64,000 nucleotides of DNA from Phycisphaeraceae bacterium (GTDB lineage: Bacteria > Planctomycetota > Phycisphaerae > Phycisphaerales > Phycisphaeraceae). Positions within the stretch are counted from its first letter, which is position 1; each line of letters begins with the position of its first letter. The notes beneath the pieces were generated by a model. It did no database searches. It had not been told where the DNA came from and saw nothing but the letters and a program-made list of their open reading frames with translations. Location: the NCBI GenBank assembly GCA_963674705.1, contig OY771506.1, positions 3,616,001-3,680,000 on the forward strand, written 5' to 3'. Positions 6,155 to 64,000 of this stretch are shown here, piece by piece. Both the position numbers and the translations under genes were made by a program.

Positions 6155-6885
6155 TTCTGCTGCTCCATCTTCCGTGTTTCCAGCACCACGCTCATGAGCC
6201 TGAGCATCTTCTCGCCTGCCGCGGCAGCTTCATTGCCCAGGCGTGTGATCCGGTTGCGGAAAAAGGCGTAGAAGAACATCAAAGGCACCGCAACGACGAG
6301 TCCCATACATGTCGTCACCAGCGCCTGGCTGATTCCCAATGCTAATTCGTCCGGCCGGGCTGCACCTTGTGCTTCTCCCAGCAGCCTGAACGACGCGATC
6401 ATGCCCGTCACCGTTCCGAGCAATCCCAACATCGGTGCGACCGATGCGATCAATCCGATATACCCGATCCGCTCACGCAGCCGCGTTACTTCCATTACGC
6501 CTTGCTGTTCCAGGCCTTCTCGCACCGCGTCGAGACCGAGTCGACCGTCGGATAAACCCGCAGAGATAATGCGTCCCAGCATGCTGTCGTGTGTTTTGCA
6601 GATGGTTAAGACCTCTTCGAAACGACCCTTGCCGGTTAATTCGTGTACCTGGCTGACCAGATTGGCAGGGATAAGTTGCTGCTCCTTGAGGCGGAGGAAC
6701 GCATCTACGACCAATGCCAGGCCGCATAAGCTAAGCAGAATGATCGCGTAACCGACCGGCCCGCCAGCGCGCACCAGGTCAAGCAGCGACCTTTGTGCCG
6801 GCTCGGAGTCGGCGCCCTGGGCATAGAGCCCGGATGCACAAATCAATACGACCAAAGTCGCCACGATAAGGCCGGCTCGTTTCAT
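6151..6885 (-). CDS. MotA/TolQ/ExbB proton-channel protein
   Basis: APMLGLLGTVTGMIASF and GISQALVTTCMGLVVAVP motifs. Confidence 0.93.
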   Translation of the reverse strand: MKRAGLIVATLVVLICASGLYAQGADSEPAQRSLLDLVRAGGPVGYAIILLSLCGLALVVDAFLRLKEQQLIPANLVSQVHELTGKGRFEEVLTICKTHDSMLGRIISAGLSDGRLGLDAVREGLEQQGVMEVTRLRERIGYIGLIASVAPMLGLLGTVTGMIASFRLLGEAQGAARPDELALGISQALVTTCMGLVVAVPLMFFYAFFRNRITRLGNEAAAAGEKMLRLMSVVLETRKMEQQK

Positions 6886-10903: not shown

Positions 10904-10923
10904 TGTTGATGTAGTATAAACCG

Positions 10924-12159
10924 ATGGCCGGTCGGCACACAAGCCAAAATCGAAAAAAGTCTCACCCTATTTGGTGGATCACCCAGGGCGTGGTTGTGTT
11001 GTTGCTTGGTTCGATCATGCTCTGGCTGATCATCCCCGAAACCGATCCGGTTCACCAGGCGGCCGACTCGTCAACCGATCAAGCGGCCCTGGACCGGATA
11101 GAAGCCTGCAAGGACGCGCCGCTTGAGTACCTCGTTACGCACACATCCGACACCGACTGGCGTGTCCGGGCGGCTGCGTATGAAGCCCTTTGGGAGATAG
11201 CGCCTTTCAAGGATGTCCCCCTGAGAGATACACCACTGGAAAAACGTGAAGCGTTATTGTTGGAATGGCTGGATCAAAACGCACCGCATCTTGCTACAGA
11301 TCTTTGCGAGTTATACGTATCCCCGCAGCACCTGTGCCTTGGCAAAACATTGGTACAGCGTTGCATGACCTGCCACCTTGGTCCAGAACCTGCACCTGAA
11401 TATGAGCCCTTGCAGTGTGCTCCATGCCACGAGCAAATTCATCAGCAATGGACCGGCACGGCACACGCCAACAGCCTGACCCACCTGCGTTATATCACGA
11501 TCGATCCAACCACCCGCCAGCAGGTTCCGCTTGAATTTGAAGGCCGAATGGGATTGTCCTGTATTGCATGTCATGAGGCCACACAGCTGACCCCCCAGAC
11601 CGATTGTGTTGCGTCTTTCAAGACCCATGCTTGTGGTACGTGCCACAGCCAGGCCCAATCGCAGTGGGAAGTCTGGCGGACATCGGATCGCTACCAGCAC
11701 GCCAACTGGCCACCGGGTTCGCTGGAAAAGCTGGAAGGACCACCGCAGGGATGTACTGACTGCCACATGAAAGAGCACGAGCATCTTTGGGCCGCCCGTC
11801 GCGATCTGGCGTTCCTGCAGTCTGGGATCAAGCTGAATATCAAGCGAATACCTCGGCAACCCACTGTGATCGAACTCTACAACCTGACCGGCCACGCCTT
11901 CCCGACCGAGACGACTCGCCGCTCGCTGCAACTCTTCATCCAGACCGACGACGGCGAAGAACGCTTGCTCGCCGAATTGGCGGATCAGATACCGGGCCAG
12001 GATTTAGCCGATAATATCGAGCCCCCGCTGGCTCCCAGCGAAGTCCGTCAGTATCCGCTCGCGGACGGCGTTGGCATCGTCCGGGCTCGGCTGGTCTTCG
12101 TCCGTAACCGCTTCCAGGAAGGCGCCTACACGATCCAGATCGCGGAAACCGATCGATAG
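10924..12159 (+). CDS. Membrane-anchored multihaem c-type cytochrome (5 CxxCH) with a HEAT-like repeat
   Basis: CMTCH, CAPCH, CIACH, CGTCH, CTDCH; N-terminal TM helix; DWRVRAAAYEALWEI repeat. Confidence 0.85.
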   Translation: MAGRHTSQNRKKSHPIWWITQGVVVLLLGSIMLWLIIPETDPVHQAADSSTDQAALDRIEACKDAPLEYLVTHTSDTDWRVRAAAYEALWEIAPFKDVPLRDTPLEKREALLLEWLDQNAPHLATDLCELYVSPQHLCLGKTLVQRCMTCHLGPEPAPEYEPLQCAPCHEQIHQQWTGTAHANSLTHLRYITIDPTTRQQVPLEFEGRMGLSCIACHEATQLTPQTDCVASFKTHACGTCHSQAQSQWEVWRTSDRYQHANWPPGSLEKLEGPPQGCTDCHMKEHEHLWAARRDLAFLQSGIKLNIKRIPRQPTVIELYNLTGHAFPTETTRRSLQLFIQTDDGEERLLAELADQIPGQDLADNIEPPLAPSEVRQYPLADGVGIVRARLVFVRNRFQEGAYTIQIAETDR

Positions 12160-41691: not shown

Positions 41692-42531
41692 TTACGAAAG
41701 CAACTCCATCAGCTTCTCCTGAGAATGCGCCAAAATGTTCAGCGACTTGAACAGGGTTTTCTCATAAATCGTCTCGCGATTGAGTTTGGTCATCTCCATC
41801 GCAAAATCCGTGTCCGCGATCTCCGAACGAGCCGCTGCAAGATTCTCGATCGCGATGCTGCTTGCATTTTTCAGTGAATCGATCGAGTTTGATTCAAACG
41901 CCCCGATCTTCCCACGCAGCGTCGAGATATCGTTGATGGCTTTATCCAGGATTTGGGTGGACGATAACGGGATGTCCGCCGCCGCACCCTTGGACGCGGT
42001 GTCATCCAGGTAGTACGTCGTCCCGTCGATATCCGTGGCCCCCAAACTGCTTGAGGATAAATCCGGCAGGTCGAGCGTCTCGCCGCCGGCAGATAGCGTG
42101 ATCGAACCATCGAATAACGCCTGGCCGTTGAACCGGGCGTTGGCGGTGATCCGGTCGATCGACTGGATATTCGCATCGATCTGCTGCTGGATCGCCGCCC
42201 GCTCATCAGCACTCATGGCCCCGGTGTTGGCAAGCTGAGTCTTAAGCCCCTGGTTTTCACGCAGCCGCGCCGACACCTCATCCAATGACGCCTCGGCCGC
42301 GGCGGCAATATAATGATTACGCTGATACGCCCGGCTCTCCGCTTCGAGTTCCGCCAGCGCCGCATCGAGCTGGGTCGAAATGATCAGTCCAGCCGGATCG
42401 TCCGCACCACGATTAATCGACCGCCCGGTCGACAACCGAGCCAACGACTCGTTCAATCGGGCCTGATTAGCCTGGAACCGATGCAGAGTATGCATCATCC
42501 CGCTGTTGATGTTATTGGTAAATCCCGCCAC
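41692..42531 (-). CDS. Flagellin-family protein (short, divergent)
   Basis: RLSTGRSINRGADDPAGL, ARFNGQALFDG, RGKIGAF and AARSEIADTDFAMEM motifs; GTG start at 42531 inferred. Confidence 0.88.
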   Translation of the reverse strand: MAGFTNNINSGMMHTLHRFQANQARLNESLARLSTGRSINRGADDPAGLIISTQLDAALAELEAESRAYQRNHYIAAAAEASLDEVSARLRENQGLKTQLANTGAMSADERAAIQQQIDANIQSIDRITANARFNGQALFDGSITLSAGGETLDLPDLSSSSLGATDIDGTTYYLDDTASKGAAADIPLSSTQILDKAINDISTLRGKIGAFESNSIDSLKNASSIAIENLAAARSEIADTDFAMEMTKLNRETIYEKTLFKSLNILAHSQEKLMELLS

Positions 42532-42739
42532 AAGGCATCCCTTTTTGGAGACACGTTCGTCACGGCAATTGACCGATACATCCGCCCGCCGGGCCAATTC
42601 AGCCCGAGAATATCCCCGCTTTTGATCCCGAAAAACCCCCGACCCGGCATAACCCGACCAGCTTAACAACCAGCCCAAATATCCCCCCAGCGGCAAGGCG
42701 TGCTTCAGCACGCCGGCCCACACTTGCTCAATGCTACAT

Positions 42740-49328: not shown

Positions 49329-50303
49329 CTACTTGCTGTCTCCCCCAACCGTTTTCCCGAGCATAGTAACTTCATCTAACAGATAGGTACCCGGTGGCAG
49401 TTTCTTGGCTACATCAAACTCATCATCACTCACCTCGGTATTGATCTGAAGAGCGAAGCTCCCATCTTCTTGTTCCAACACGTCGAATTGATGTTGGTGC
49501 GTAGCGGCCTCATCTTTCACGCCGAAGTAAGAACGGATCCCCTTTACGGCAAACCATTGGCCGCCGATCTCCGCGACCTCGCTAACCTCATATATCACAC
49601 GGGGGTACCCTTTCCCAAGCCAAAGCTCCTGCCGCAAAGGAACAAAACCCCTTTCCGGGTCCAGCCAAAGACTCACAAGTTTCCGATCCTTGAGTTCTTC
49701 ATTGGGATATAGGTCAACCACGTAACACTGCCGGCCGCCAATGGGCTCCATCGCTTCTCGCAGTCGAGCACCTGGCGCACTAAGCCAGGTGGAAGCGCTG
49801 GCATCTAGCAAGCTGTAAATATTTTTAGTATCTCCTCCATGCGGAAGATTAAGAAGATTGAAGTTGAAGAACTCACTGTTATACCGATTGGCGGCTTGCG
49901 GCCTACTCTTCAAAACAATTGCTTGTGAATTATGCACGGTATAATCAACCGAGCGATTCCCATCAAACCCGACTATCCGATGGAATTTCAGGTTGTCGAT
50001 ATCCTGGCGCCATCCATAGTTCATATCTCTGACTATTTTATCGCCCTTAACTATAGTTGTTTCGCGTTGGTGTACGAGCACTTCACCTTCAGGCACAACG
50101 GTTGCATTGTACGTGTACGTAACCGTAAGATTCTCTATCATTGAGCGATTGGCATCAACAATTGCATGTATGTCTGTCAACGAAAGATCGGCTCTAGGAT
50201 CTACTGGCCAAGCCGGCTCTGCATAAAAAAGGTTTGCTGTTAAAGCAATCATGCACGCTATTAGGCAGCTATTCGCTGTTATATTCAACCGGCTCAGCTT
50301 CAT
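49329..50303 (-). CDS. Hypothetical exported protein (possible LolA-like fold), low GC
   Basis: Signal peptide; IGGRQCYVVDL, LWLDPERGFVPLR and EVSDDEFD. Confidence 0.7.
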   Translation of the reverse strand: MKLSRLNITANSCLIACMIALTANLFYAEPAWPVDPRADLSLTDIHAIVDANRSMIENLTVTYTYNATVVPEGEVLVHQRETTIVKGDKIVRDMNYGWRQDIDNLKFHRIVGFDGNRSVDYTVHNSQAIVLKSRPQAANRYNSEFFNFNLLNLPHGGDTKNIYSLLDASASTWLSAPGARLREAMEPIGGRQCYVVDLYPNEELKDRKLVSLWLDPERGFVPLRQELWLGKGYPRVIYEVSEVAEIGGQWFAVKGIRSYFGVKDEAATHQHQFDVLEQEDGSFALQINTEVSDDEFDVAKKLPPGTYLLDEVTMLGKTVGGDSK

Positions 50304-50730: not shown

Positions 50731-51240
50731 GCAGTCAAGTCGTGGCAGACGGATACAGATTCTCCTCGATGATACGGGGCGTGATCAACCGCGTCTTTCA
50801 TCATTCGTGCTTGGTCGTTCATTCGGCATTCACGCTTGCCTCGCTCGGCGCGGGTCTCCTGACCCTGCCGAAACACCCGACCGAAGGTCTCCCAATTCGG
50901 CATTCACGAATGCTCTATTCCGTGCATTCACAGGTATCCGGCTCATATCCCAGCTAGATCCGGAGGCTTCCGCGGAGAGGGAGGCAGTGAAGACGGCTGT
51001 GCCAGGCTCGGCGCAGGGGCGTCTTCTTGGGTGTTCCGGGGGGGCTGGGGATATCACCCATAATTGCATAATATTGAGTCATTTAGACGATTATCAGCAG
51101 GTATGGCAGTGGTTTGCGATCCGGCGCATTTTGTATTTGCGACGCTTTGCTTGACCGTTTGCGACGGCCGTAAATAACGTGCTTGCAGGTGTTTGAGCGG
51201 CCTGTTCCTGTTAAGATAGTCACCCAAAGATGAGTACCCC

Positions 51241-54200
51241 ATGACTCAGCAGTCCAACCAATCAGTACAGGAGCAGCCGCAGGTCCAAGGGGGCTCGGCC
51301 CTGACGCGATTGGGTGAATTGCTCGGACCTCATAAGTACATGCTCGGCCTCGCGGTCCTGATGCTCATCGGGCTGACCGCGGTCAACATCATCATCCCCC
51401 AACTCATCGCGATCGTCTTCGACGAGGTCTTCGAGACCGGCAACTGGATGCTGCTGTTCACCGTGCTCGCCACCATGCTCGGTCTCTACCTCCTGCGCAA
51501 CCTGCTCTACTTCGGCGGCAAGACCATCTCCGTGAGCATCGGTGAGAACCTGTGCTTCGGTTTGCGTAAGCAACTGTTCGAGCGGCTCCAGCACATGAGC
51601 CTGCGTTACTACCAGCACCACAAGCCCGGGCAACTTTCCAGCCGGGTCATGAACGACAGCTACGTCATACAGCAGTTCATCCAGAACGAGTTCCCGACGC
51701 TGATCCAGGCGTTGTTGCTGTTTCTGGGGATCGTGGCGACGACGTACGCGATGAACTGGCAACTCGCCTTGGCGTCGACGATCCTGCTGCCGCTGCACAT
51801 GGCGGCGTTCTACTACATGCGTCGGCCTATCAAGAAGGCGAGCCGGGCCGCGCAGAGCCACCTTGCGGACGCCACCGGCAACCTGATCGAAAAGTTCCTC
51901 GGTATCGAAGTCGTCAAAGGATTCGTCGGCGAGGAAAGAGAGAACGCCGCGTTCGAAGAAGCGATCGACCTGTCTCGCAAGAGCGAGAAGCGTGGCCAGC
52001 AGTTCCATGTGCTACAGAAGGTTTTGGCCGACCTGCTCGTGGGGCTCGGTTTCGCCATGCTGATCGGTTTCGGCGCGTACCAGGTGTTCGGCGTTCCGGC
52101 GAGCAGGGCGCTGGCGCCCGGTGAATTCATCGCGTTCTTCTGGTACGTCCGCATGCTCTACCCGACCGTCATCGAAATGATGAGCGGTTCAGCCAAGCTG
52201 GCCAAAACCAGCGCGAGCATCGACCGCGTGTATGAAGTGCTCGACCTGACGCCCGATGAGATCCTCGAAGAAGCGCAGCGCGTCGAGGCGATCAAAGGCG
52301 GGTTGGAATTCAAGAACGTGTTCTTCAAGTTCGGCGACGGGGCGGATGTGCTCGAGGATATCAGCTTTAAGGTCGAGCCCGGGCAGGTCTGTGCGGTGGT
52401 CGGCCCATCCGGCGCAGGTAAGAGCACGCTGATGAGCCTGGTCCCACGCATGAACGTGCCCACGCAGGGTGAATTGCTGATGGACGGCGAAAACACCGCC
52501 GAGATGCCGCTGCACCACATCCGCACGACGGTCGGCATGGCGTTCCAGGAGGCGTTCCTCTTCAGCAGCTCCATCCTGGAAAACCTGCGATACGCCCGGC
52601 CCGACGCGACACGCGAAGAGGTCGAGAACGTGCTCAAGCGCATCGGCCTGCACAAGTTTGTCGAAGAACTGCCGCAAGGCTATGACACGATGGTTGGTGA
52701 TGAAGGGCTGAGCCTGTCCCGCGGGCAGAAGCAGATGATCACCCTCGCACGCGCCATCCTCAAAGACCCCAAGGTGCTGATCCTCGACGAGGCGACTGCT
52801 TCGATCGACATCGCACAGGAAGCCGCGATCATCCCCGTGATCCTGGACTTCATGAAAGGCAAGACGACGCTGATGGTTACTCACCGCCCCGAACTGCTCA
52901 AGCACGTTGACAAGGTTGTACATCTGGAAGGCGGAAGAGTCGTGTACGACGGTCCACCGGAAGGATTCGATGCCGAAGCATTCACGACGTCCAAGCCCCT
53001 GATCCTGCCAACGGATGAACGTGTCGAAAATCGCGGCCCACAGCACCGGTCTCTGCGTCCGGGTAGTAGTGCGCTCAACCTGTTAGCGATCGGCCTGCTC
53101 AGCGCATTGACCATGTTAGGTGGTACACAACCGATCTATGCCGCCGAGGGCGACGCCGCTGCTGCGCCCGCTGAAACCAAACAAGCTGAGCCCGCACCCG
53201 AAGCGAAAAAAGATGAGCCCAAGCAAGAAGAAGCTAAACCACAGCCCGCTGCCGAAAAACCTGCCGAAAAACCTGCTCCGAAACCCGCCGCCGCACCCGC
53301 GCCAAAGCCGCCCGTTGGCCAGATGATCTCGATGCCCAACACGAGCCGTAACGAGCTGCGCGAACTCATCGACGTCGTCGCGTCTCGCATCCGTGCCGAG
53401 ATGGGTTACGAAACTGCCTCCGGCGAGCAGGTCGCCCTCATCAAACAAACCCCCGATAATCTCAGCTCTCCTGTCACGCTTACAAAACAAGACGGCGACA
53501 ACACCCGGCTCATACAACTCGGCTCCAAGAGCTACCTCAGCCAACCCGGCCAGGTCTGGCTGTTCGGCCAGATGATCACCAGCAACAGCGTCATCGAAAA
53601 CACGGACATCGCCAAAGTCGTTCCCATGATCCAGACAGCCGGCAAAGCTCAGGAAGAACAAGCCAAGAACATTAGTCTGGCTGATCTGAAGTCGGCACGG
53701 ATCGAACTCAGCTACATCGAGGCCGACCGTTGCCTCGGCGTGCTTAAAGGCCTCGGCATCCAGACCATCCAATACAAAAAAACCGGTGACGGCATCGGGC
53801 AGGCGAAACTCATCGAACCTACCGCGCAACTGGATATCAACAATCTCCCCGCCGTCATGCTCATGCCCGGGCCCGACGGCGTCGGACTCGTCGGTGGCTC
53901 ACAGGAGATGAAGTCCAAGACACTCACCGTTGCGCAGAGCCTCAACGACATGACCAGCGCCGCGCCCATGATGAACCTCATGGTCTTCTATAACCCGAGC
54001 CATCCCGAGCAATTCGCACGTGTACACGACCTGGTCCGCCGAACGATCGACGTCGCCTCCGGCCAGATCGTCATCGAGGCCATGGTCCTGGAGATCTCCG
54101 AGTCCGGCCTCAGACAACTCGGAGTTGAGTGGGAACTCGAAACGCCCTTCGGTTCCGATTCATCATTACGCAAAGTCGAATCCGTCCAGTTGGGCCGTCT

Positions 54201-55773
54201 ACCAAGCTTCACCGGCAACCCAGCCCTTGACGCTACTTTCGTAGGCCTGAACAATCACTGGAAAGCACAAATCCAGGCCATGGTCACCTCCGGCCAGGCC
54301 GAAATCCTCTCTCGCCCCAGCGTGCTCACGCTCGACAACCGCCAGGCATCGATCCGTGTCGGCGAGGAAATCCCCATCGCTACCAGCGTCACCGGCACCA
54401 GCGGCGGCGACAAGGTCAGCTTCAGCTTCGAATATATCCCCGTCGGCATCATCCTCAACGTCAGGCCCCGCGTCAGCGCCGACGGCGAAGACGTCAGCAT
54501 GCAGATCGATGCCATCGTCTCCTCGGAAGTCCCCGGCGAAGAACTGGTCCTGCTTGATAACAACGGCGACGAACTCGCCCGCGCGCCGCGCATCGCTTCA
54601 CGCCGCGTCCAGACGCACACACGCATCTCCAACAACACGCCCTTCATCATCGGCGGGCTGGTCAGCAAAGATACGATCAATACCGAAGAGAAAGTCCCGC
54701 TGCTCGGCGACATCCCGATCGTCGGCAACCTCTTCAAGAGCAGCACCAACGACAGGCTCAAACGCGAAGTCATCATCGTCATCACGCCTTACGTCCTGCC
54801 CAAGAACCAGGTCGTCGGCCGCAACACTCCCGAAGACGAAGACGCCTTCGACAGCTTCGATAACGAGCTGTTCCGCGATGCCTACCGCATCCGCGCTGAA
54901 GATGTCTTCGACCTGCGCTTCCTCTTCGAAAACCTGCAGGTCCACAAGATGCTGCGCATGGCCGACCAGATCCTCAACCGCCGGCCCGACTGGGCTTACA
55001 AGTATCCCTTCTCCCAGTTCGCGGATAACCGCATCCCCGGCGAGCGCATCCTTGTCTACCGACAGATCTATGAAGTCATCAAACGCCGAGGCATCGATCA
55101 GAAAACCAACCCCAGCCGGTTGATCTACTTCAAGGATGCGCCCGAGCAGCCCGCAGGTTTCGAGGTCAAGTTCCTCGAGCAATCCCTCGCCAAGATGCTC
55201 GGTGTATCAAAGCCCGCGATACCGATCGGCGATGATTGGCTCTTCGGCAACCTCAAGGATCAGGCCGTCGCCATCACCTTTACCGAGCAACCCTTCGACG
55301 GCGCTATTGACGCGCCCACGCAACCCGTGCCCGATGTCAGCCTTGTTGAATGCCACGACCGCGACGAGTGGGGGGCCTTGCTCTGGGAACTCAACCAACC
55401 CAACAGCCAGGGCCAGCGCCGATTCACTATCCTCCTCAAGGATGGCCGAGACATCGCACGCCTTCGTCGTGCCGTCGTCGTCAAGCAGACCGTCCAGCTC
55501 AACGCCACGCATCAATCGCTGCGTCTGCGCAACTTCACGCAGGGTCGCCTGCTGCTGGTGCCGACAATTAAAGACGATCAGGTATTTTTGATTGACGAAG
55601 ACGTCGCCCAGTACTTCTTCTACACCGAGCACTACTACCCCGCCCTGCAGAGCGAACTGCAACGCGACATGGAAGCACTGCATAATGCCCTGCAAGACCC
55701 GGAATACAGCAGCTACCTGGACGATCCGGATATGGTCAACAAACCCATCCCCTGGCGTCCGACCGGCAGGTAA
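51241..55773 (+). CDS. ABC exporter (TMD+NBD) fused to a GspD/PilQ-type secretin with a long C-terminal extension
   Basis: About 6 TM helices, GPSGAGKS, FQEAFLF, LSRGQKQ, LILDEAT, VTHR; then LLAIGLLSALTMLGGTQPIYA; then an N3-like domain, QIVIEAMVLE, LSRPSVLTLDNRQASIRVGEEIP, KVPLLGDIPIVGNLFK and REVIIVITPYV. One uninterrupted 1510-aa frame. Confidence 0.88.
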   Translation: MTQQSNQSVQEQPQVQGGSALTRLGELLGPHKYMLGLAVLMLIGLTAVNIIIPQLIAIVFDEVFETGNWMLLFTVLATMLGLYLLRNLLYFGGKTISVSIGENLCFGLRKQLFERLQHMSLRYYQHHKPGQLSSRVMNDSYVIQQFIQNEFPTLIQALLLFLGIVATTYAMNWQLALASTILLPLHMAAFYYMRRPIKKASRAAQSHLADATGNLIEKFLGIEVVKGFVGEERENAAFEEAIDLSRKSEKRGQQFHVLQKVLADLLVGLGFAMLIGFGAYQVFGVPASRALAPGEFIAFFWYVRMLYPTVIEMMSGSAKLAKTSASIDRVYEVLDLTPDEILEEAQRVEAIKGGLEFKNVFFKFGDGADVLEDISFKVEPGQVCAVVGPSGAGKSTLMSLVPRMNVPTQGELLMDGENTAEMPLHHIRTTVGMAFQEAFLFSSSILENLRYARPDATREEVENVLKRIGLHKFVEELPQGYDTMVGDEGLSLSRGQKQMITLARAILKDPKVLILDEATASIDIAQEAAIIPVILDFMKGKTTLMVTHRPELLKHVDKVVHLEGGRVVYDGPPEGFDAEAFTTSKPLILPTDERVENRGPQHRSLRPGSSALNLLAIGLLSALTMLGGTQPIYAAEGDAAAAPAETKQAEPAPEAKKDEPKQEEAKPQPAAEKPAEKPAPKPAAAPAPKPPVGQMISMPNTSRNELRELIDVVASRIRAEMGYETASGEQVALIKQTPDNLSSPVTLTKQDGDNTRLIQLGSKSYLSQPGQVWLFGQMITSNSVIENTDIAKVVPMIQTAGKAQEEQAKNISLADLKSARIELSYIEADRCLGVLKGLGIQTIQYKKTGDGIGQAKLIEPTAQLDINNLPAVMLMPGPDGVGLVGGSQEMKSKTLTVAQSLNDMTSAAPMMNLMVFYNPSHPEQFARVHDLVRRTIDVASGQIVIEAMVLEISESGLRQLGVEWELETPFGSDSSLRKVESVQLGRLPSFTGNPALDATFVGLNNHWKAQIQAMVTSGQAEILSRPSVLTLDNRQASIRVGEEIPIATSVTGTSGGDKVSFSFEYIPVGIILNVRPRVSADGEDVSMQIDAIVSSEVPGEELVLLDNNGDELARAPRIASRRVQTHTRISNNTPFIIGGLVSKDTINTEEKVPLLGDIPIVGNLFKSSTNDRLKREVIIVITPYVLPKNQVVGRNTPEDEDAFDSFDNELFRDAYRIRAEDVFDLRFLFENLQVHKMLRMADQILNRRPDWAYKYPFSQFADNRIPGERILVYRQIYEVIKRRGIDQKTNPSRLIYFKDAPEQPAGFEVKFLEQSLAKMLGVSKPAIPIGDDWLFGNLKDQAVAITFTEQPFDGAIDAPTQPVPDVSLVECHDRDEWGALLWELNQPNSQGQRRFTILLKDGRDIARLRRAVVVKQTVQLNATHQSLRLRNFTQGRLLLVPTIKDDQVFLIDEDVAQYFFYTEHYYPALQSELQRDMEALHNALQDPEYSSYLDDPDMVNKPIPWRPTGR

Positions 55774-55995
55774 ATCGCGGCAAGCATGTTTAGAATAAAA
55801 ACTATCCTTGTCCGATGAGTGCTGTTTTACAGGATAATTCTGTCTACTCATGGGTTGATTAAACCCGCAATCATCCTATATTACCCGCGTGTACACCATC
55901 CGATTGCAGGGGTAGGGCGGACCAACTCCATGATCGATGCGTGAGAGATCTGACATCCGCTAATCAACTATCGCGAACACTTGAAAGGAATCCCA

Positions 55996-56904
55996 ATGTT
56001 TCACGTCACACGTTTAGGATTGCTCGCGGCTGCCTGCGTTGCAGTCCCCGTACTTTCCCAATCGTCCGCTTCTGCGCAGCACGCCAACTTCGTGCTCTTC
56101 GGCGATCCGAATCCCGCCGCCGCGAATGTCCCCGATTCGCAGAAGCACGTCCACCCCATCACCACCCCGTATTACAACGAAGACTCCTTCGTCACCTCCG
56201 ACGTCCGTGCCTGGTTTGTCTACCACGACTTCCCCAAGTCCAGCGTCATCAACGGCGGTAACGCAAAGGTCTACGCCGCTCAGGTCCGCCTCGCCCTGAC
56301 CGATCAACTCCAGTTCGTCGCCTACAAAGACGGCTACATCGATTGGGACTCCGGCCTCATCAAGGACGACGGCTGGAACGACATCGCCGCCGGCATCAAG
56401 TGGAACTTCATCCAGGACTGGGAAAACCAGTTCCACATGGCTGCCGGTATCGGCTACGAAATCCCCACCGGCGGCTCCGATGTCCTCCAGGACGACGACG
56501 AGTGGCGCTTCTGGGTCTCCGCCAACAAGGGCTTTGAAGAGCTGCACCTCGGCGGCACACTCAACTACATCGTCTCCGATCAACCCAACCAACGCCTCGG
56601 TAACTCCGATCAACTCATCTGGAACGTCCACCTCGACTACTACGTCAGTGAGTTCTTCAGCCCGGTCGTCGAACTCAACGGCTTCCACGTCCTCGACGAC
56701 GGCGGCGTCGTGGTCCCGTTCTCCGGACTCGACGTGGTTAACCTCGGCGGTAACGAAAACGAAGACGTCGTCACCCTCGGCCTGGGCACGGAACTGCGGC
56801 CCAACGATCTGATGTCGATCCGCGTTGCTTATGAAACACCGCTGACCGACAACGACGACCTCTACGGCTACCGCTGGACGTTCTCCCTCGTTTGGCCGTT
56901 CTGA
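55996..56904 (+). CDS. Outer-membrane beta-barrel protein (putative channel)
   Basis: AAAGGAA RBS; signal peptide ending ASA; GWNDIAAGIKWNF and SPVVELNG; ends FSLVWPF. Confidence 0.75.
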   Translation: MFHVTRLGLLAAACVAVPVLSQSSASAQHANFVLFGDPNPAAANVPDSQKHVHPITTPYYNEDSFVTSDVRAWFVYHDFPKSSVINGGNAKVYAAQVRLALTDQLQFVAYKDGYIDWDSGLIKDDGWNDIAAGIKWNFIQDWENQFHMAAGIGYEIPTGGSDVLQDDDEWRFWVSANKGFEELHLGGTLNYIVSDQPNQRLGNSDQLIWNVHLDYYVSEFFSPVVELNGFHVLDDGGVVVPFSGLDVVNLGGNENEDVVTLGLGTELRPNDLMSIRVAYETPLTDNDDLYGYRWTFSLVWPF

Positions 56905-57107: not shown

Positions 57108-59498
57108 GTGACAGCCTCACAGACATTGGATGCAACCCCGGATTCACCGGGCAAGCTCGAAAAATTTACCTATGACGACAAGATCGTGAGGGCATTCCTC
57201 CTTGCGACCATTGTCTGGGCCCTGGTCGCGTTCCTCGTCGGCATCATCGCCGCGATCGAACTGGCCTTCCCCGAAGCCAGCATGGGCATCCCGTACATCA
57301 CGTTCGGACGCCTCCGACCGCTGCACACCAACGCCGCCATATTCGCCTTCGCCGGCAACACCATCTTCGCGGGTATCTACTACTCCACCCAGCGCCTCTG
57401 TAAAGCGCGGATGGCCAGCGACCTGCTCAGTTGGCTTCACTTCTGGGGCTGGCAACTCATCATCGTCTCCGCTGCGCTCACGCTGCCGCTGGGTATCACC
57501 CAGAGCAAGGAATACGCCGAGCTCGAATGGCCCATCGACATCGCCATCGCTGTCGTCTGGCTCGTTTTCTTCGGCGGCAACTTCTTCTGGACGCTCGCCA
57601 AACGCCGCGAACGACACCTCTACGTCGCACTGTGGTTCTACATCGCTACGATCGTCACCGTCACGATCCTGCACGTATTCAATAACCTCTGGTTCCCGCT
57701 GGTTGCCACCGGCAAGCCCGGCACGTTCTTCGGCTACCTCAAGAGCTACCCCGTCTACGCAGGCGTCCAGGACGCGTTCATGCAGTGGTGGTACGGCCAC
57801 AACGCCGTTGCCTTCTTCCTCACCACCCCGTTCCTCGGCCTCATGTACTACTTCATGCCCAAGGCCGCCGACCGCCCCGTCTTCAGCTACAAGCTCTCCA
57901 TCCTGCACTTCTGGTCACTGGTCTTCATCTACATCTGGGCCGGCCCGCACCACCTGCACTACACCGCGCTTCCTGAATGGGCCTCCACCCTCGGCATGAT
58001 CTTCAGCCTCATGCTATGGATGCCAAGCTGGGGCGGCATGATCAACGGCCTGCTTACCCTCCGCGGCGCCTGGCACAAGGTCGCCACCGATCCGATCCTC
58101 AAGTTCTTCGTCGTCGCCGTCACGTTCTACGGCATGAGCACCTTCGAAGGGCCCATGCTCTCCATCAAGAGCGTCAACGCACTATCGCACTACACCGACT
58201 GGACCATCGCACACGTCCACGCCGGCGCACTGGGCTGGAACGGGTTCATGGCCTTCGGCATGATGTACTTCCTGCTGCCGCGACTCTTCCAGACCAAACT
58301 CTTCAGCAAGCAACTCGCCGAGCTGCACTTCTGGCTCGCGACCGTTGGCATCCTGCTCTACATCATCCCGATCTACGTCGCCGGCATCACGCAGGGCCTC
58401 ATGTGGCGCGGCATGACCGACCAGGGCCAACTGCTTTACCCCGACTTCGTCGAGACCGTCACGCACATCGTCCCGATGTACTACCTGCGAATCCTCGGCG
58501 GCCTCTGCTACTTCGGCGGCGCCGCCATCGGTTTCTACAACTACATCATGACCTGGAAGGCTCGCCCCGAGAAGTACGAAGAGCCCGTCCACCAGGCCCC
58601 GGCGCTCAGCGCCACCTACGACGACGGCCCGCCGCCTCATTCTCGTCTCAAGGGTGTCACCGACCTCGGGCACAAGATCGACATCTTCATGCAGATGAAG
58701 TGGCACCGCCGATGGGAACGGCTCATGGTTACCTTCACCATTTGGGTCATCATCTCCGTCTCCGTCGCCTCGCTGTTTGAAATCATCCCCACGTTCCTGA
58801 TCCGCTCGAACGTGCCGACGATCGCAACCGTCACGCCTTACACGCCGTTGGAACTCGCCGGCCGGGATATCTACGTCTCCGAGGGCTGCTACAACTGCCA
58901 CTCGCAGATGATCCGACCGATGTTCCACGAAACCAAGCGCTACGGCGAATACTCCAAGCCCGGCGAATCCGTCTACGACCACCCGTTCCAGTGGGGCTCA
59001 CGCCGCATCGGTCCGGACCTGGCGCGTGAAGGCGGCAAGCAGTCGCCTTACTGGCACGTCATCCACTTCCGCAATCCACGTCTGCTCGTTGAGCAGTCCA
59101 TCATGCCCGAGTACTCCTGGCTCGAGAAGAAGGACGTCGACATCAAATCGATCCCACTCCGCGTCAAGGCCAACCGCATGATCGGCGCGGACTACGACGA
59201 CGAGGATGTGCAAAACGCGATCGAGCACGCCATGGCTCAAGCCGAACTCATCGCCGGCAAGATCAAGGAAGGTGCCGGCGGCGATACGACCATCGAAGGG
59301 CTTGTCATCAACAAAGACGGTAAGCAGCAGATCAAGGAAGTCGTCGCCGTGATCGCCTACCTGGAGCGGCTCGGTGTCGATTTGTTTAAGACGCCGGATG
59401 AACCCGCCACCGAAGAAGCGGAAACCGAAACCGCAGATCAGGATCAGGATGTGTCCCAGCCCGTCGGTGAACCCACCGCGATGAGGGCCGACGGATGA
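57108..59498 (+). CDS. ccoN: cbb3-type cytochrome c oxidase, fused subunits I/II (CcoN-CcoO)
   Basis: FGRLRPLHTNA, QWWYGHNAV, WAGPHHLHYT and HVHAGALGW; then EGCYNCHSQMIRP and WGSRRIGPDLAR. Confidence 0.97.
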   Translation: MTASQTLDATPDSPGKLEKFTYDDKIVRAFLLATIVWALVAFLVGIIAAIELAFPEASMGIPYITFGRLRPLHTNAAIFAFAGNTIFAGIYYSTQRLCKARMASDLLSWLHFWGWQLIIVSAALTLPLGITQSKEYAELEWPIDIAIAVVWLVFFGGNFFWTLAKRRERHLYVALWFYIATIVTVTILHVFNNLWFPLVATGKPGTFFGYLKSYPVYAGVQDAFMQWWYGHNAVAFFLTTPFLGLMYYFMPKAADRPVFSYKLSILHFWSLVFIYIWAGPHHLHYTALPEWASTLGMIFSLMLWMPSWGGMINGLLTLRGAWHKVATDPILKFFVVAVTFYGMSTFEGPMLSIKSVNALSHYTDWTIAHVHAGALGWNGFMAFGMMYFLLPRLFQTKLFSKQLAELHFWLATVGILLYIIPIYVAGITQGLMWRGMTDQGQLLYPDFVETVTHIVPMYYLRILGGLCYFGGAAIGFYNYIMTWKARPEKYEEPVHQAPALSATYDDGPPPHSRLKGVTDLGHKIDIFMQMKWHRRWERLMVTFTIWVIISVSVASLFEIIPTFLIRSNVPTIATVTPYTPLELAGRDIYVSEGCYNCHSQMIRPMFHETKRYGEYSKPGESVYDHPFQWGSRRIGPDLAREGGKQSPYWHVIHFRNPRLLVEQSIMPEYSWLEKKDVDIKSIPLRVKANRMIGADYDDEDVQNAIEHAMAQAELIAGKIKEGAGGDTTIEGLVINKDGKQQIKEVVAVIAYLERLGVDLFKTPDEPATEEAETETADQDQDVSQPVGEPTAMRADG

Positions 59499-59722
59499 TC
59501 AAGGATGTCCTGCAAAGCGGAAACTACGGCCTGTTCACGCAGATCGCGCTGGTGCTGTTCTTCCTCGCCTTCGTGGTCCTGCTCGTCATCAACTTCCTGC
59601 GCCCGCGAAGCCAGACCGACAAGATCGCTCGCCTGCCGCTTGAAGACGACGACAACATCACACCCATCACCCCAAGGACCGCCGAACCGATCGGCAACGG
59701 GCAGGGAGACCATAATCAATGA
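59495..59722 (+). CDS. ccoQ: cbb3 oxidase subunit CcoQ-like
   Basis: Small single-TM ORF with ARLPLED, between ccoNO and ccoP. Confidence 0.8.
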   Translation: MIKDVLQSGNYGLFTQIALVLFFLAFVVLLVINFLRPRSQTDKIARLPLEDDDNITPITPRTAEPIGNGQGDHNQ

Positions 59723-60342
59723 GTGATGCCCCAACCACACCTGAAGTCTATGAAGACCCGTTGACCGATCACGAGTACGACGGCATACGTGAGTTCGACA
59801 ACCCCACGCCGGGTTGGTGGAACTGGCTGTTCATCGCTTCGATCATCTTCGCGATCTTCTACTTTGTCGCCCACCACATCGGCACCGCCGGTATCAGCGT
59901 CGAACAGGCTTATGAAAACCAGAAGAGCGAGGTCAGCAAGCGCATGCTCGCGCTGCTCGGTGACCTGCCGGTGAATGAAGAAACGATCATCGCCAACCAG
60001 AAAAACCAGGACCTTCTAGCGGTCGGCGCGGGTATCTTCCAGACGAATTGCGTTTCTTGCCATGGCAAGGAAGCCCAGGGTTTAGTCGGGCCGAATCTGA
60101 CCGATGACAAATACAAGAACGTGAAAACCATCGGCGATATCGGCGAGGTCTTGGTTAACGGTGCGAACAACGGCGCCATGCCTGCGTGGGGGAACAGGTT
60201 ACCCTCCACCGAAATCGTCGCTGTGTCGGTGTATGTCGCTTCACTGCGCGGCCAGAACCTGCAGGGTGTCTCAATCCAAGGTGAAGAACAAATCGCTCCG
60301 TGGCCCGCTCCGCCCGCGCAGCCGGTGGAAAACGCCGAATAA
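59719..60342 (+). CDS. ccoP: cbb3 oxidase subunit III (short, single haem)
   Basis: DHEYDGIREFDNPTPGWW, CVSCH, GPNLTD and MPAW motifs. Confidence 0.92.
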   Translation: MSDAPTTPEVYEDPLTDHEYDGIREFDNPTPGWWNWLFIASIIFAIFYFVAHHIGTAGISVEQAYENQKSEVSKRMLALLGDLPVNEETIIANQKNQDLLAVGAGIFQTNCVSCHGKEAQGLVGPNLTDDKYKNVKTIGDIGEVLVNGANNGAMPAWGNRLPSTEIVAVSVYVASLRGQNLQGVSIQGEEQIAPWPAPPAQPVENAE

Positions 60343-60387
60343 CCCGGCCTAGAATCGGGCCCGAAACCACGAACATGGAACGCAACG

Positions 60388-61821
60388 GTGAGTAACCTGA
60401 TCGAGCCCGAAGAACGCGTCCTCTCGACGCTGGAGAAAGACGGTTCAAGACGTTGGCTGTACCCGAGGTTGTCGCAAGGCAACTTCCTGCTCAAGCGACG
60501 CATCGTTGCCTACGCGCTGATCCTGATCTTCACGCTCATCCCGTATATCAAGCTCAACGGCAAACCGCTGATCCTGCTCGATGTCATCAACCGTGAATTC
60601 ACGATCCTCGGTTACACCTTCCTGCCGACCGACACGATCCTGCTTGCCTTGTTCATCGTCGCGGTGATCGTCGGTATCTTCCTGATGACCGCGCTGTTCG
60701 GCCGCGTCTGGTGCGGCTGGGCCTGCCCCCAGACCGTCTACATGGAATTCGTCTATCGCCCGATCGAACGCTTATTTGAAGGCACGAAAGGCAAGGGCGG
60801 TAAACCTCGCGGACAGGTCGAAGGCTGGCGCAAAATCGCCAAGTTCGTCGTCTACTTCTTTGTCTCCACCTTCCTCGCGCATACCTTCATCGCTTACTTC
60901 GTCGGCGTCGACAATCTGATCAAGTGGATGACCGGTTCGCCTTTTAATCACCCCGTCGCGTTCCTCGTCATGGCGGCTGTCACCGCGCTGATGATGTTCG
61001 ACTTCGGCTACTTCCGTGAACAAACCTGCATCATCGCCTGCCCCTACGGACGCTTACAGTCCGTCATGCTCGACCGCCAATCACTGATCGTCACCTACGA
61101 CAAGAACCGCGGCGAACCTAGAGGCAAAGTACGCAAAGGCGAAGCGGACGACAAAGGTGATTGTGTTGACTGTCACTTGTGTGTCGACACCTGTCCGACC
61201 GGCATCGACATCCGTGACGGCCTGCAACTGGAATGCATCGGCTGCGCCCAGTGTATCGACGCCTGCGCCCCCGTCATGGCAAAGCTCGGCCGCGATCCCG
61301 GCCTCATCCGCTACAGCACGCAAGCAACCATGGAAGGGCAGAAGCAACGCTTCATCCGCCCACGCGTCATCTTCTACCCCGCGATCATGCTGATCGTCAT
61401 CACCTTGTTCAGCGTGTTGTTCTTCAACAAGGGAACAGCAGATGTATTGATGCTGCGCAACTTCGGCAATCCATACACCGTGTTGGAAGATGGACAGATC
61501 GCAAACTCGATGCGCTTGAAGATAACAAACCGTACTGGTGATACTGCAAGCTACACCATTGCGCCGGCCGACGAACGCATTACGCGTATCGACCTTGCAG
61601 AGAACCCTGTGCAAGTTGAGTCCGGCGAATCGGTTACCGAAGGCGTACTGGTTGTCGTACCACGTTCCGTGTTCACCGTCGGCGCGATCGATGTGAACCT
61701 GCGTGTAACGGATGGCAACGACTACGATGAGATGATCCACTGCCGCTTGTTGGGCCCTGTAGGTTCAGCGTCGGCAACAGTTTCGGTTGAGACTGAGGAA
61801 GAAGCGGAGATGCAGCCGTGA
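60388..61821 (+). CDS. ccoG: cbb3 accessory 4Fe-4S protein CcoG/FixG
   Basis: GRVWCGWACPQT, CPYGRLQS, CVDCHLCVDTCPTGIDIR and CIGCAQCIDAC motifs. Confidence 0.95.
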   Translation: MSNLIEPEERVLSTLEKDGSRRWLYPRLSQGNFLLKRRIVAYALILIFTLIPYIKLNGKPLILLDVINREFTILGYTFLPTDTILLALFIVAVIVGIFLMTALFGRVWCGWACPQTVYMEFVYRPIERLFEGTKGKGGKPRGQVEGWRKIAKFVVYFFVSTFLAHTFIAYFVGVDNLIKWMTGSPFNHPVAFLVMAAVTALMMFDFGYFREQTCIIACPYGRLQSVMLDRQSLIVTYDKNRGEPRGKVRKGEADDKGDCVDCHLCVDTCPTGIDIRDGLQLECIGCAQCIDACAPVMAKLGRDPGLIRYSTQATMEGQKQRFIRPRVIFYPAIMLIVITLFSVLFFNKGTADVLMLRNFGNPYTVLEDGQIANSMRLKITNRTGDTASYTIAPADERITRIDLAENPVQVESGESVTEGVLVVVPRSVFTVGAIDVNLRVTDGNDYDEMIHCRLLGPVGSASATVSVETEEEAEMQP

Positions 61822-62363
61822 GTGAGCAAGGCGCGACAGATCCGAAGCCGCAACAGCCCGGCAAACCGCCTAAGTACTGGATCTGGCCGGCGATTATCGT
61901 CGGTCTGCTGGCGGTTCATACGCTTGCCATGCTGATCGTCATCATGATCGCGACGAACAACCCGTCCGAAGCGGTTGTCAGCGACTATCACGCCAAGGCG
62001 GTCGCCTGGGATGAGCATCAAGCGCAAGTCCGTGCCAGTGAAGCACTTGGCTGGACTGTTGCGGTCGAAGCCTCCCCACAGCCGGACCTGTTGAACCAGC
62101 GGACTGTGCGAATCAGTCTCAAAGATGCAGATGCAAATTCGTTGACCGATGCCAAAGTGCATCTCAAAGCGTATCATCATGCACGGGCTGCGGACATCAA
62201 GGAAGCGGATGTCGAAGAACGCGCGCCCGGTGAGTACATCGTGATGATCGACATGCGGCGTAACGGCATGTGGGCGTTCGAGATAGAAGCGCACAAAGAT
62301 GAAGACACCTTCATCACGCGCATCGATCAACAGGTCGGCCCGACCAAGTACGGCACGCCATGA
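61818..62363 (+). CDS. ccoH: FixH/CcoH-family protein
   Basis: N-terminal TM (WPAIIVGLL), DYHAKAVAW and GEY..G.W; operon position. Confidence 0.8.
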   Translation: MSEQGATDPKPQQPGKPPKYWIWPAIIVGLLAVHTLAMLIVIMIATNNPSEAVVSDYHAKAVAWDEHQAQVRASEALGWTVAVEASPQPDLLNQRTVRISLKDADANSLTDAKVHLKAYHHARAADIKEADVEERAPGEYIVMIDMRRNGMWAFEIEAHKDEDTFITRIDQQVGPTKYGTP

Positions 62364-63166
62364 CCCTTTCCATCTTCGCCATCCTGATCGCCAGCCTCGT
62401 CGGCAGCCTGCATTGTGTAGGCATGTGCGGCGCGTTCGTCGCCTTCGCGGTCGGCACGGATGATAAGCCCGGTTGGCGCAATAAGTTCCTGTTATCCGCT
62501 GCGTACAACGGCGGACGCCTGGTCACCTACAGCATCCTCGGCGCGATCGCCGGCACACTCGGCCACGTCCTGGACCTCGGCGGGAAGTACGTCGGCATCC
62601 AGCAAGCCGCCGCGATCATGGCGGGCGTCGTCATGATCGTGTTCGGAATCGTTGCCTTACTTAAAGTTAAAGGCGTTCGGCTTCCCAAAACGCCGCTGCC
62701 GAAGTTCCTGGTAAAGATTGTTGCGCTAGGACAAGGCCTGGCCATGGCGATGCGACCGCTGCCCCGGGCGCTGACCATCGGCTTGCTGACGACGCTTCTA
62801 CCTTGTGGCTGGCTCTATGCTTACGCGTTTGTGGCGGCGGGCACGGGCAGCCCGGTGTACGGCGCGTTGACCATGGCGATCTTCTGGCTGGGCACGTTGC
62901 CTTATCTTGTCGCCGTGGGTGTCGGGGTGCAGAGTCTGGCCGGTGTGTTAGGCAGGCATCTGCCGGCGGCGACCGCCATATTGATTGTGCTGGTAGGGAT
63001 TTACACCGTCTTCTATCGGCTGGATCTATCCAACGCGGTCTACGCCCAGACCGACCAGGTGGATTATGAATCGCTGACGCCTGAAGAAGCCGCCGAATTA
63101 AATCAGCGGATGATCAGTGAATTGCCACCCTGTTGTGTCACCGATGACGAATCCAAACAAGACTGA
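62360..63166 (+). CDS. DsbD_2/TauE-like membrane protein of cco operons
   Basis: GSLHCVGMCG, YNGGRLVTY, LLPCGWLY and FWLGTLP motifs. Confidence 0.88.
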   Translation: MTLSIFAILIASLVGSLHCVGMCGAFVAFAVGTDDKPGWRNKFLLSAAYNGGRLVTYSILGAIAGTLGHVLDLGGKYVGIQQAAAIMAGVVMIVFGIVALLKVKGVRLPKTPLPKFLVKIVALGQGLAMAMRPLPRALTIGLLTTLLPCGWLYAYAFVAAGTGSPVYGALTMAIFWLGTLPYLVAVGVGVQSLAGVLGRHLPAATAILIVLVGIYTVFYRLDLSNAVYAQTDQVDYESLTPEEAAELNQRMISELPPCCVTDDESKQD

Positions 63167-63218
63167 TCCCCGGGAAGCTTCGCAACCGCCGCTTGACGCT
63201 GCGCCGGATAGTACGCTT

Positions 63219-64000
63219 GTGTCAAACGACGCGCAAGATATCCACCACTCAACGGGCGCACAGTCCTGTCGTGTTTATACCCCGTGCGCACACTGCGGGC
63301 TGCCGGTTCCCAAGGGTCGGATCGATCCCGAGGCCGAGGATGGATTGCAATTCTGTTGCGGCGGGTGCGAAGCGGTCTACGCGGTCATCAACAAGCTCGG
63401 ATTAAGTTCTTACTACAAGCTGCGGCAGAAGCAGGAGGTCGAACAACAACCTGCCAAGACGACCGGCGCGGGTTACCAGGCGTTTGATCATCCGGAATTC
63501 ATCGAGCGCTGCTGCGAAGATCGCGCGGATGGATCAAGGACAACGAGTTTCTATCTTGAAGGTGTGCACTGCGCTGCGTGTTTGTGGTTGGTTGAGAAGT
63601 TGCCGACGGTTGTGCCGGGCGTGATCGAGTCGCGGCTGAACATGGGTAAGTCGCTTGTGCGATTGACGTGGGACCCGAAGCAGGTCGAGTTATCGAAGAT
63701 CGCTGCGGCGCTTGATTCACTGGGTTATCCGCCGCATCCGGCGCGCGATGTGCAGGCGGATGCGGTGGTGACGCGCGAGAATCGGCGTGAGCTGATACGC
63801 ATCGCCGTGGCAGGGTCAGCGATGGGCAACGCGATGATCCTGGCGATCTGCCTTTATCAAGGCTACTTCACGGGGATCGAAGATCAGTATGCAACACTAT
63901 TCCGTTGGGTTGGGATGGGTTTAGCGCTCGTTGCATTAGTATGGCCCGGCGCGGTTTTCTTCCGGGGCGCGTGGTCTGCGATACGCACGCGCACCGCACA
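63219..64000 (+). CDS. ccoI: Cu-translocating P1B ATPase CcoI/FixI, 3'-truncated by the window end
   Basis: The frame from GTG 63219 (absent from the ORF track) gives CAHCGLPVP, FCCGGCEAVY and the HMA motif GVHCAACVWLVE, then TM helices. Confidence 0.88.
   Translation, partial: MSNDAQDIHHSTGAQSCRVYTPCAHCGLPVPKGRIDPEAEDGLQFCCGGCEAVYAVINKLGLSSYYKLRQKQEVEQQPAKTTGAGYQAFDHPEFIERCCEDRADGSRTTSFYLEGVHCAACLWLVEKLPTVVPGVIESRLNMGKSLVRLTWDPKQVELSKIAAALDSLGYPPHPARDVQADAVVTRENRRELIRIAVAGSAMGNAMILAICLYQGYFTGIEDQYATLFRWVGMGLALVALVWPGAVFFRGAWSAIRTRTA

Follow-up and report, generated by a model that had tools for sequence, protein, structure and literature searches.

Organization and distribution of the fusion gene

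We analyzed a DNA stretch of 64,000 nucleotides from a Phycisphaeraceae bacterium (contig OY771506.1, positions 3,616,001 to 3,680,000), which is called the window here as a whole. The gene of interest was located at 51241..55773 on the + strand. It was a single frame of 1510 amino acids (aa) with zero internal stops and encoded an ATP-binding cassette (ABC) exporter, a putative internal signal peptide, a secretin, and a C-terminal domain; the product was likely a cleaved polyprotein. Pfam matches over the cut-off were obtained for ABC_membrane (aa 36-303), ABC_tran (aa 371-520), and Secretin (aa 1013-1186). An earlier note on this DNA, made from the letters alone, had claimed that an ABC exporter and a secretin share one frame, and this was borne out by the stop-free frame and the three domains.

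The junction between the two halves was checked, as the earlier note had proposed, and showed neither a stop nor a frameshift. The contig of run X1 covered 50800-56200 with 0 differences, although this run was possibly the source of the window DNA itself. A contig from a separate study (X4) covered 50970-56198 with 341 substitutions over 5.2 kb, and its sole listed indel was upstream of the gene. The same frame was open in genome L001 (Phycisphaeraceae bacterium, 98% identical). An assembly chimera or a frameshift at the junction was ruled out by the two contigs, L001, and fused homologues.

Full-length homologues across the junction were also found. Among the best 120 of 1268 matches, all three Pfam domains were present in 112, query included, and 8 were secretin-only. 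This meant that the fused architecture was kept in 111 of the 119 top matches besides the query, down to approximately 40% identity. Organisms named among these 120 matches were Phycisphaeraceae, Phycisphaerales, or Planctomycetota, and the named isolates carrying the fusion were Poriferisphaera corsica (P0074), Poriferisphaera sp. WC338 (P0061), and strain AB-hyl4 (P0020). The database names of the fusion and secretin homologues were plain ABC transporter or GspD. The C-terminal domain was patchily distributed: in the class it was found in 17 of the 301 genomes, and in the phylum in 9 of the 401 (own genome included). The fusion is real and conserved in Phycisphaerae.

The ABC exporter half

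The transmembrane domain (TMD; aa 36-303, PF00664, E 3.6e-38) was encoded at 51346..52149 (+) and the nucleotide-binding domain (NBD; aa 371-573, PF00005) at 52351..52959 (+). The Walker A motif GPSGAGKS was found at 52402-52425 (+), exactly where the earlier note had placed it. It was followed by a variant signature LSRGQ (52714-52728, +), Walker B with the catalytic Glu (DE, 52786-52791, +), and the switch His (52882, +). With its fused TMD and NBD, Walker A and B motifs, and switch His, the half was classified as a type IV (MsbA-like) ABC transporter. Its top bacterial solved relative was TM288 (E 5.8e-89). The MsbA model TIGR02203 gave 344 bits, below its cut-off of 602, and further exporter genes were present elsewhere in the genome. 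Models of the ABC component of type I secretion systems (T1SS) scored far below cut-off on this half.

The motifs were compared in 40 cognate ABCs, that is, those linked to this secretin in relatives. The Walker B Glu was kept in 39 of the 40 scored, Walker A was kept, and the switch His was mostly kept. The canonical LSGGQ was absent from all 40, in which LSRG[Q/E], FSRGE, LSHGQ, or FSYGE was present, and the Ser and the second Gly were retained in these variants. The half resembled the half transporters MsbA, Sav1866, and TM287-288 in joining a TMD to an NBD and in having Walker A, the Glu of Walker B, and the switch His. It differed in forming a separate clade, in the LSRG[Q/E] signature, and in scoring below the MsbA cut-off. 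The other full exporters of the genome that were examined, five in number, included no unpaired TM287-like half; a sixth match was a 528-aa partial. The sole half with a DD Walker B seen in the genome had its own partner adjacent. Since no unpaired TM287-like half was available, a homodimer was the likelier form and is probably how the ABC half functions.

The secretin half and the C-terminal domain

The secretin half began with a family-specific N-terminal domain (aa 693-819, 53317..53697, +) without a Pfam match. An N3-like periplasmic domain followed at aa 820-945 (53698..54075, +), where the GspD model TIGR02517 started to match; its Atlas similarity to Secretin_N, 0.79-0.83, was only a lead. 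The secretin core (aa 946-1190, 54076..54810, +) matched PF00263 with E 5e-46 and 156.8 bits against a cut-off of 27.5. It aligned to the GspD core up to its end, and solved GspD chains were its best solved relatives (E 3e-29). An insertion of about 8-9 residues was observed in a core hairpin that we take to be the second gate-like one. TIGR02517 aligned to aa 820-1190 over model positions 238-594 and gave 188 bits, which did not reach its cut-off of 351.

The last 316 residues formed a conserved alpha/beta domain at the position of the S-domain (aa 1195-1510, 54823..55770, +). The earlier note had listed the exporter, the N3-like domain, and the secretin core correctly, but this domain was not named. 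AlphaFold2 gave a confident alpha/beta model with pLDDT 94 and pTM 0.91. No Pfam match was obtained, Foldseek gave no match at E<=0.001, and the best Atlas similarity was 0.79. The VIA comparison with 48,161 chains gave a best Z of 4.4 (rmsd 4.7, 85 aligned residues), a result that does not by itself prove a new fold. The domain matched 293 clusters at 50% identity, and 47 of the 47 long matches scanned carried a secretin domain. In relatives it was followed by a SPOR domain (P0164) or a CBM9 domain (P0166). SPOR binds peptidoglycan. The SPOR domain behind it suggested that the C-terminal domain is likely in the periplasm, at the place taken by the S-domain in GspD. Its role is probably in assembly or anchoring. 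Further fusions of this secretin family were seen in P0242, P0164, P0166, and P0180, with cNMP at the N-terminus or SPOR or CBM9 at the C-terminus.

An internal signal-peptide-like segment between the halves

The two halves were joined by poorly conserved sequence with one conserved feature. The NBD was followed by an unconserved cytoplasmic spacer (52960..53070, +; 14% column identity), whose end was basic and resembled the n-region of a signal peptide. A signal-peptide-like segment came next (aa 611-634, 53071..53142, +). It consisted of a hydrophobic helix (aa 611-629), the residues I-Y-A, and then A-E, and a signal peptidase I (SPase I) cut was predicted after Ala634. The region behind it was a Pro/Ala/Lys/Glu-rich spacer (53143..53316, +; 13% column identity), the predicted N-terminus of the mature secretin. 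The earlier note had described a Pro/Ala/Lys-rich linker, and such a spacer was present at 53143-53316; the helix within the linker had been overlooked. In a 70-sequence alignment, column identity was 53% for the TMD, 55% for the NBD, 58% for the secretin core, and 50% for the C-terminal domain, compared with 13-20% for the linker.

The helix was kept in this drifting region. Hydropathy windows and cleavage and lipobox patterns were scored by hand-written heuristics. Of 119 fused proteins, 117 had a linker helix whose best 12 residues showed a hydropathy of at least 1.8; at least 2.2 was reached by 82% of fused linkers compared with 1.5% of 602 control windows. For the cleavage counts, one near-duplicate was dropped (n=118). 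A lipobox-like G/A/S-Cys was found at the helix end in 24 of the 118. Four of the 94 non-lipobox linkers had no downstream acidic residue and were left unscored (n=90). Small-x-Ala ended just ahead of the first acidic residue in 52 of these 90, where shuffling expects 21.1, and the same positional pattern was found in only 4 of 70 uncleaved ABC helices used as a control. The split secretins inspected mostly began with the same type of signal as their fused kin, namely the Ala type in L003, L005, L006, and L008 and the lipobox type in L043 and L044. A Peptidase_S26 gene was present in the genome of the window.

Because six transmembrane helices would leave the NBD cytoplasmic, a seventh helix would carry the secretin out. 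The retention of sites for two different peptidases in a drifting region indicated selection for cleavage. Since the helix and its cleavage-type end were kept amid unconserved sequence, a cleaved polyprotein was likelier than a tether. We consider it likely, from these sequence patterns, that the fusion product is cleaved at the internal signal peptide.

Linkage of the ABC exporter and the secretin in relatives

The surroundings of the secretin were examined in 110 loci (1.28 Mb), which came from separate search sets of 10, 16, and 4 loci and the best 80 of at least 405. A cognate ABC was found in 44 of them: 24 were fused, 17 had the ABC directly upstream, 2 had it directly downstream, and 1 was frameshifted. 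The earlier note would have been contradicted if all relatives had carried unlinked halves with the secretin inside an operon of a type II secretion system (T2SS) or type IV pilus (T4P). This did not occur, and split relatives kept the two genes adjacent.

Trees were built with FastTree; the lipobox and SPase I labels put on their tips by pattern matching were noisy and did not enter any count. The cognate ABCs formed one clade with a support of 0.97, apart from the other exporters of the genome. Their tree distances tracked the secretin tree with r 0.92 over 40 loci, which reflected stable linkage and not contact. Split clades were nested several times among fused ones, the nearest kin of the window included, and the gene order was reversed in one clade. 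This nesting meant that the covalent link was dispensable.

MscS-type channels as alternative partners

The other 66 loci had no ABC. An MscS-type channel gene was directly adjacent on the same strand in 40 of them and nearby in 1, and neither partner was found in 25, of which 20 were short-flanked. ABC and MscS were never found together (0 of 110 loci). When the count was limited to the 59 loci whose two flanks each measured 1.5 kb or more, 34 had the ABC, 19 had an adjacent MscS, 1 had an MscS near, and 5 had neither. These counts describe kin loci and not independent events. Examples of MscS-secretin pairs were L078:6299-9962, L080:7479-11962, and L039:1307-7676, with 37 more loci.

Most MscS partners had a C-terminal cNMP domain, as in the bacterial channels gated by cyclic nucleotides (bCNG channels). 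A second group of 357-406 aa was plain MscS and only 20-22% identical to the cNMP group. The MscS-linked secretins fell into three clades, which were interleaved with the ABC-linked ones. The family N-terminal domain was absent in 25 of 25 secretins with MscS upstream. The protein P0142, which corresponded to L039, came from an MscS-type carrier named Anaerohalosphaeraceae. P0242, named Acidobacteriota, was an independent fusion of the same build, in which an internal signal-like helix linked a cNMP domain to this secretin. The occurrence of the same secretin beside MscS in relatives suggested that these secretins are likely outlets for inner-membrane transporters and not parts of pili or T2SS. 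No link between bCNG or MscS channels and a secretin was found in the literature searched.

According to one publication (PMC13591265), it is not known what bCNG channels do physiologically, and bCNG overexpression gave E. coli no protection from osmotic shock. In the same text, glutamate is excreted by the MscS-like MscCG, and most descriptions of MscS-like channels are of efflux routes. The alternative secretin partners in the 40 loci resembled these channels in that they were of the MscS family, mostly with a C-terminal cNMP domain.

Two further gene types were observed near MscS loci. Proteins in which an NMT1_3/TAXI-type binding domain was fused to an ion-channel segment and RCK were encoded at L039:1307-3634, L083:3098-6268, and L103:3652-5907. 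The ion-channel segment had a Pfam match in the L083 fusion, and such binding/K+-channel fusions lay near plain-MscS loci (5 loci). They are possibly ligand-gated K+ channels. A membrane-anchored Sel1/TPR protein was encoded directly downstream of the secretin in 10 loci, which were part of the MscS-upstream clade (for example, L078:9943-11931, L098:6570-8351, and L113:9949-11388), and it is possibly an assembly factor.

Search for filament or type I machinery

The earlier note had recognized no GspE/PilB, GspF, pilin, membrane fusion protein (MFP), or TolC gene in the window, which held among the 47 window proteins scanned. The 110 loci were searched with the genome's own proteins as queries. 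No GspF match was found in them, a T2SSE-family ATPase was found in 2, and a prepilin motif was found in 1. The linked ATPase, platform, and pilins that define a T2SS or T4P were absent among the window proteins scanned, and no more than these few matches was found across the 110 loci. Pilus or T2SS genes are not recurrent neighbors of this secretin. The genome had four other secretins, three of which adjoined an ATPase gene. Another unusual secretin, a 1145-aa frame, was observed at G000:C1:5203948-5207385, with no T2SSE-family ATPase gene listed nearby.

A TolC-like match was found in 1 of the 110 loci; the genome had 6 TolC-like genes at other sites, and these could act in trans. MFP-like matches were found in 3 of the 110 loci, and the single ABC locus among them was L005, where the MFP was followed by its own small ABC ATPase. 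Apart from L005, the co-localization of ABC and MFP genes that marks a T1SS was not observed. A cluster in which an MFP and a TolC-like gene were accompanied by their own small ABC ATPase was located 3.5-8.6 kb past the right end of the window (G000 3683514-3688615).

Neighboring genes and other features of the window

The promoter and terminator scan of the locus gave no usable operon boundary, and no cargo gene recurrent across the ABC clades was found. No RNA data set containing the gene was listed, a result with no bearing on whether it is expressed. In one clade (L056, L057, L060, L061, L063, and L081), a subtilase with a P-domain was encoded directly upstream of the split ABC-secretin pair; it is a candidate cargo or only synteny. 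A cbb3 oxidase operon was downstream in 8 related loci, and FG-GAP or PEP-CTERM genes were near a few. Synteny among kin or the large size of the gene families can account for each of the subtilase, cbb3, and FG-GAP/PEP-CTERM neighbors. In the window, 55981-56904 (+) encoded a 307-aa protein with a signal peptide, a C-terminal Phe, and no Pfam match, which looks like an outer-membrane beta-barrel. Its place, with the secretin on one side and the cbb3 operon on the other, was conserved in the 8 related loci. The oxidase operon itself (57108-64000) contained a fused ccoN-ccoO, ccoP, ccoG, ccoH, and a DsbD-like gene.

A LolA-like protein (49329-50303, -; weak Pfam match, E 4e-4) was divergent from the fusion gene, and tblastn gave no match to it in L001-L010. 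A 51-bp dispersed REP-like repeat at 50842-50892 had 36 matches in the genome and occurred in many other run contigs too. Farther away, a lone flagellin-like gene was found at 41692-42723 (-); the window proteins scanned included nothing else flagellar. The region 865-10942 (-) encoded HEAT and TPR proteins, ExbB, two ExbD, a vWA protein, a solute-binding protein, and an ABC ATPase.

Discussion

The gene places a TMD, an NBD, a hydrophobic helix, a secretin, and a C-terminal domain in one frame. By topology, the helix behind the cytoplasmic NBD would run from inside to out and serve as an internal Sec signal by which the secretin is passed into the periplasm. The motifs suggest that SPase I would cut after Ala634 and leave a stub on the ABC; in the lipobox clade, Lgt and signal peptidase II (SPase II) would instead yield a lipoprotein secretin. 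As in homologous secretins, the released part would multimerize in the outer membrane, probably aided in assembly or anchoring by the C-terminal domain. Gene context suggests that both halves would belong to one transport route, coupled via the periplasm and with no rigid tunnel. The ABC half would pump soluble cargo into the periplasm without need of a pilus, an adaptor, or TolC, and the fusion would fix the ratio of co-expression. A functional partnership of the ABC and the secretin seems likely to us. We give an even chance to the full proposal, in which a cleaved polyprotein would yield an inner-membrane ABC and a pilus-free outer-membrane secretin outlet for soluble cargo. A broader proposal falls just short of that. 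It holds that this secretin class has been freed from filament machines and may serve as a modular gated outlet for interchangeable transporters, with an ATP-driven exporter in one lineage and a cyclic-nucleotide-gated or plain MscS in others. In the ABC lineage, the product would then be a polyprotein that signal peptidase I cleaves, except in one clade, where an internal lipobox would direct the cut to the lipoprotein pathway.

The outward direction of transport and the kind of cargo are proposals from comparison. Because the same secretin was also paired with MscS, a folded exoprotein would be a less likely cargo than a small hydrophilic solute, peptide, or glycan. The ABC exporter and MscS would share the release of solute into the periplasm, which favors a small hydrophilic cargo. 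The one-gene ABC-energized export route of the earlier note stood in part: the fusion was conserved, and the ABC and secretin were stably coupled outside a T2SS or T4P operon. ABC energization did not hold as a rule for the family, since 40 of the 110 loci paired the secretin with a passive MscS-type channel.

Several observations weighed against the cleaved, pilus-free outlet. Co-divergence is expected of any linked genes and is no proof of interaction, and the loci compared were kin and not independent. Three genomes that were 92-99% complete (G130, G159, and G362) had the secretin, but the cognate ABC was not found; their best ABC matches had approximately 30% identity compared with 41% for the cognate. 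An MscS was beside the secretin in G159, and neither partner was there in G130 and G362. The strict cleavage pattern was absent in 38 of the 90 non-lipobox linkers. A looser pattern was barely above shuffles (86 vs 62 of 101) and was replaced by the positional test. A T2SSE-family ATPase was located 0.7-1.2 kb upstream in the sister loci L030 and L053, and a prepilin gene was 3 kb away in L080. In addition, the genome had 18 T2SSE-family ATPases over the cut-off and 44 prepilin-motif open reading frames for only 5 secretins, and with its many ATPases, prepilins, and TolC-like genes, partners in trans were possible.

The last points would fit a secretin whose filament machine, of type II or type IV, is encoded elsewhere. 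In that case, the ABC or MscS linked to it would be a co-regulated helper, for instance in lipid or glycan export for assembly or in the relief of envelope stress from a leaky secretin. The closest solved relatives were GspD, and neither partner was present in 5 of the 59 well-flanked loci, as this explanation would allow. We consider it unlikely, since the GspD model stayed under its cut-off and matched only from aa 820, the family N-terminal domain was missing from all 25 secretins of the MscS-upstream clade, and GspF was found in none of the 110 loci. Repeated pairing with unrelated inner-membrane transporters is also unexpected for a filament secretin. A route in the opposite direction was given still less weight. 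Here, a solute, peptide, or oligosaccharide would enter through the secretin and be imported by the exporter-fold ABC, in the manner in which the exporter-fold importers YbtPQ, IrtAB, and Rv1819c do. The CBM9 domain behind the C-terminal region in two relatives and the binding-protein/K+-channel fusions near plain-MscS loci were in line with import. However, no binding protein was recurrent in the ABC loci, and MscS-like channels are mostly described as efflux routes in the accessible text of PMC13591265.

Two further explanations were weighed. In the strict form of the earlier note, one polypeptide would span both membranes, with the helix as a permanent anchor and the secretin ring tied to the ABC subunits. 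The topology permits this, a long cytoplasmic part could hinder signal peptidase, and more than 100 clusters retained the fusion, at identities as low as approximately 40%. Against it stood the internal cleavage-type motifs of two different peptidases, the alternation of fused and split forms on the tree with several fissions, and the one clade of reversed order. A lipobox Cys becomes the N-terminus of a lipoprotein only after cleavage. Moreover, a secretin of 12-15 subunits would drag 6-7 ABC dimers (solved GspD entries had 15 chains). The uncut tether was therefore judged improbable. Less probable again was the translation of the secretin from its own internal start, with the in-frame fusion as a lost stop of little consequence. 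A Met, GTG, or TTG occurred shortly ahead of the helix in L002, L029, and L030, and split and fused forms occurred in one 90% cluster (P0131 and P0265), although P0131 was maybe a contig fragment. In the window, L001, and L034, by contrast, the spacer had no in-frame ATG, GTG, or TTG. The mis-anchored L032 entry of this start-codon scan was disregarded. Met ahead of the helix was not above chance (38 of 118 vs approximately 45% by chance), and the frame stayed open across a spacer of variable length in more than 100 lineages.

The cleaved polyprotein was compared with known systems. FbcH of Bradyrhizobium is a cytochrome b/c1 polyprotein; a paper on a bacterial polyprotein precedent was not found in the literature searched. 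Signal peptidase cuts the membrane anti-sigma factor RsiV, a reaction reconstituted in vitro according to the accessible part of PMC4183432. The fusion resembled these precursors in having a predicted signal-peptidase site behind an upstream domain. It differed in that its predicted released product is an outer-membrane multimer and in the internal lipobox of one clade. A T1SS consists of ABC, MFP, and outer membrane factor (OMF), and its ABC and MFP genes are always co-localized, as stated in the portion consulted of bioRxiv 10.1101/031039. The fusion had in common with this tripartite ABC-MFP-TolC system an exporter-fold ABC and an outer-membrane channel; the channel was a secretin instead of TolC, and no MFP was adjacent. 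The secretin core and the N3-like domain were shared with GspD/PulD as well as PilQ, RcpA, SctC, and phage pIV. In contrast to these, it had a family-specific N-terminal domain, an unmatched 316-aa C-terminal domain, and no operon of platform, ATPase, and pilin. The known co-options of secretins listed in the consulted part of PMC6668835 are the type III secretion system, Tad, and filamentous phages, and neither ABC nor MscS partners are among them. A secretin paired with an ABC transporter or an MscS channel was not described in the literature searched, which covered few subscription journals and no supplements. The fusion would thus be new as a category of gene architecture, with a function proposed from comparative genomics.

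Secretins are the outer-membrane gates of piston or needle machines, and ABC exporters partner with TolC and an adaptor. If true, a two-part module of ABC and secretin or of MscS and secretin would be an architecture outside both schemes. It would be the simplest secretin system in which gating could be studied without a filament, and it would add a conserved bacterial polyprotein, internal lipobox included, as well as a confidently folded 316-aa domain without a clear solved match. It would also point to a first setting in cell physiology for bCNG channels.

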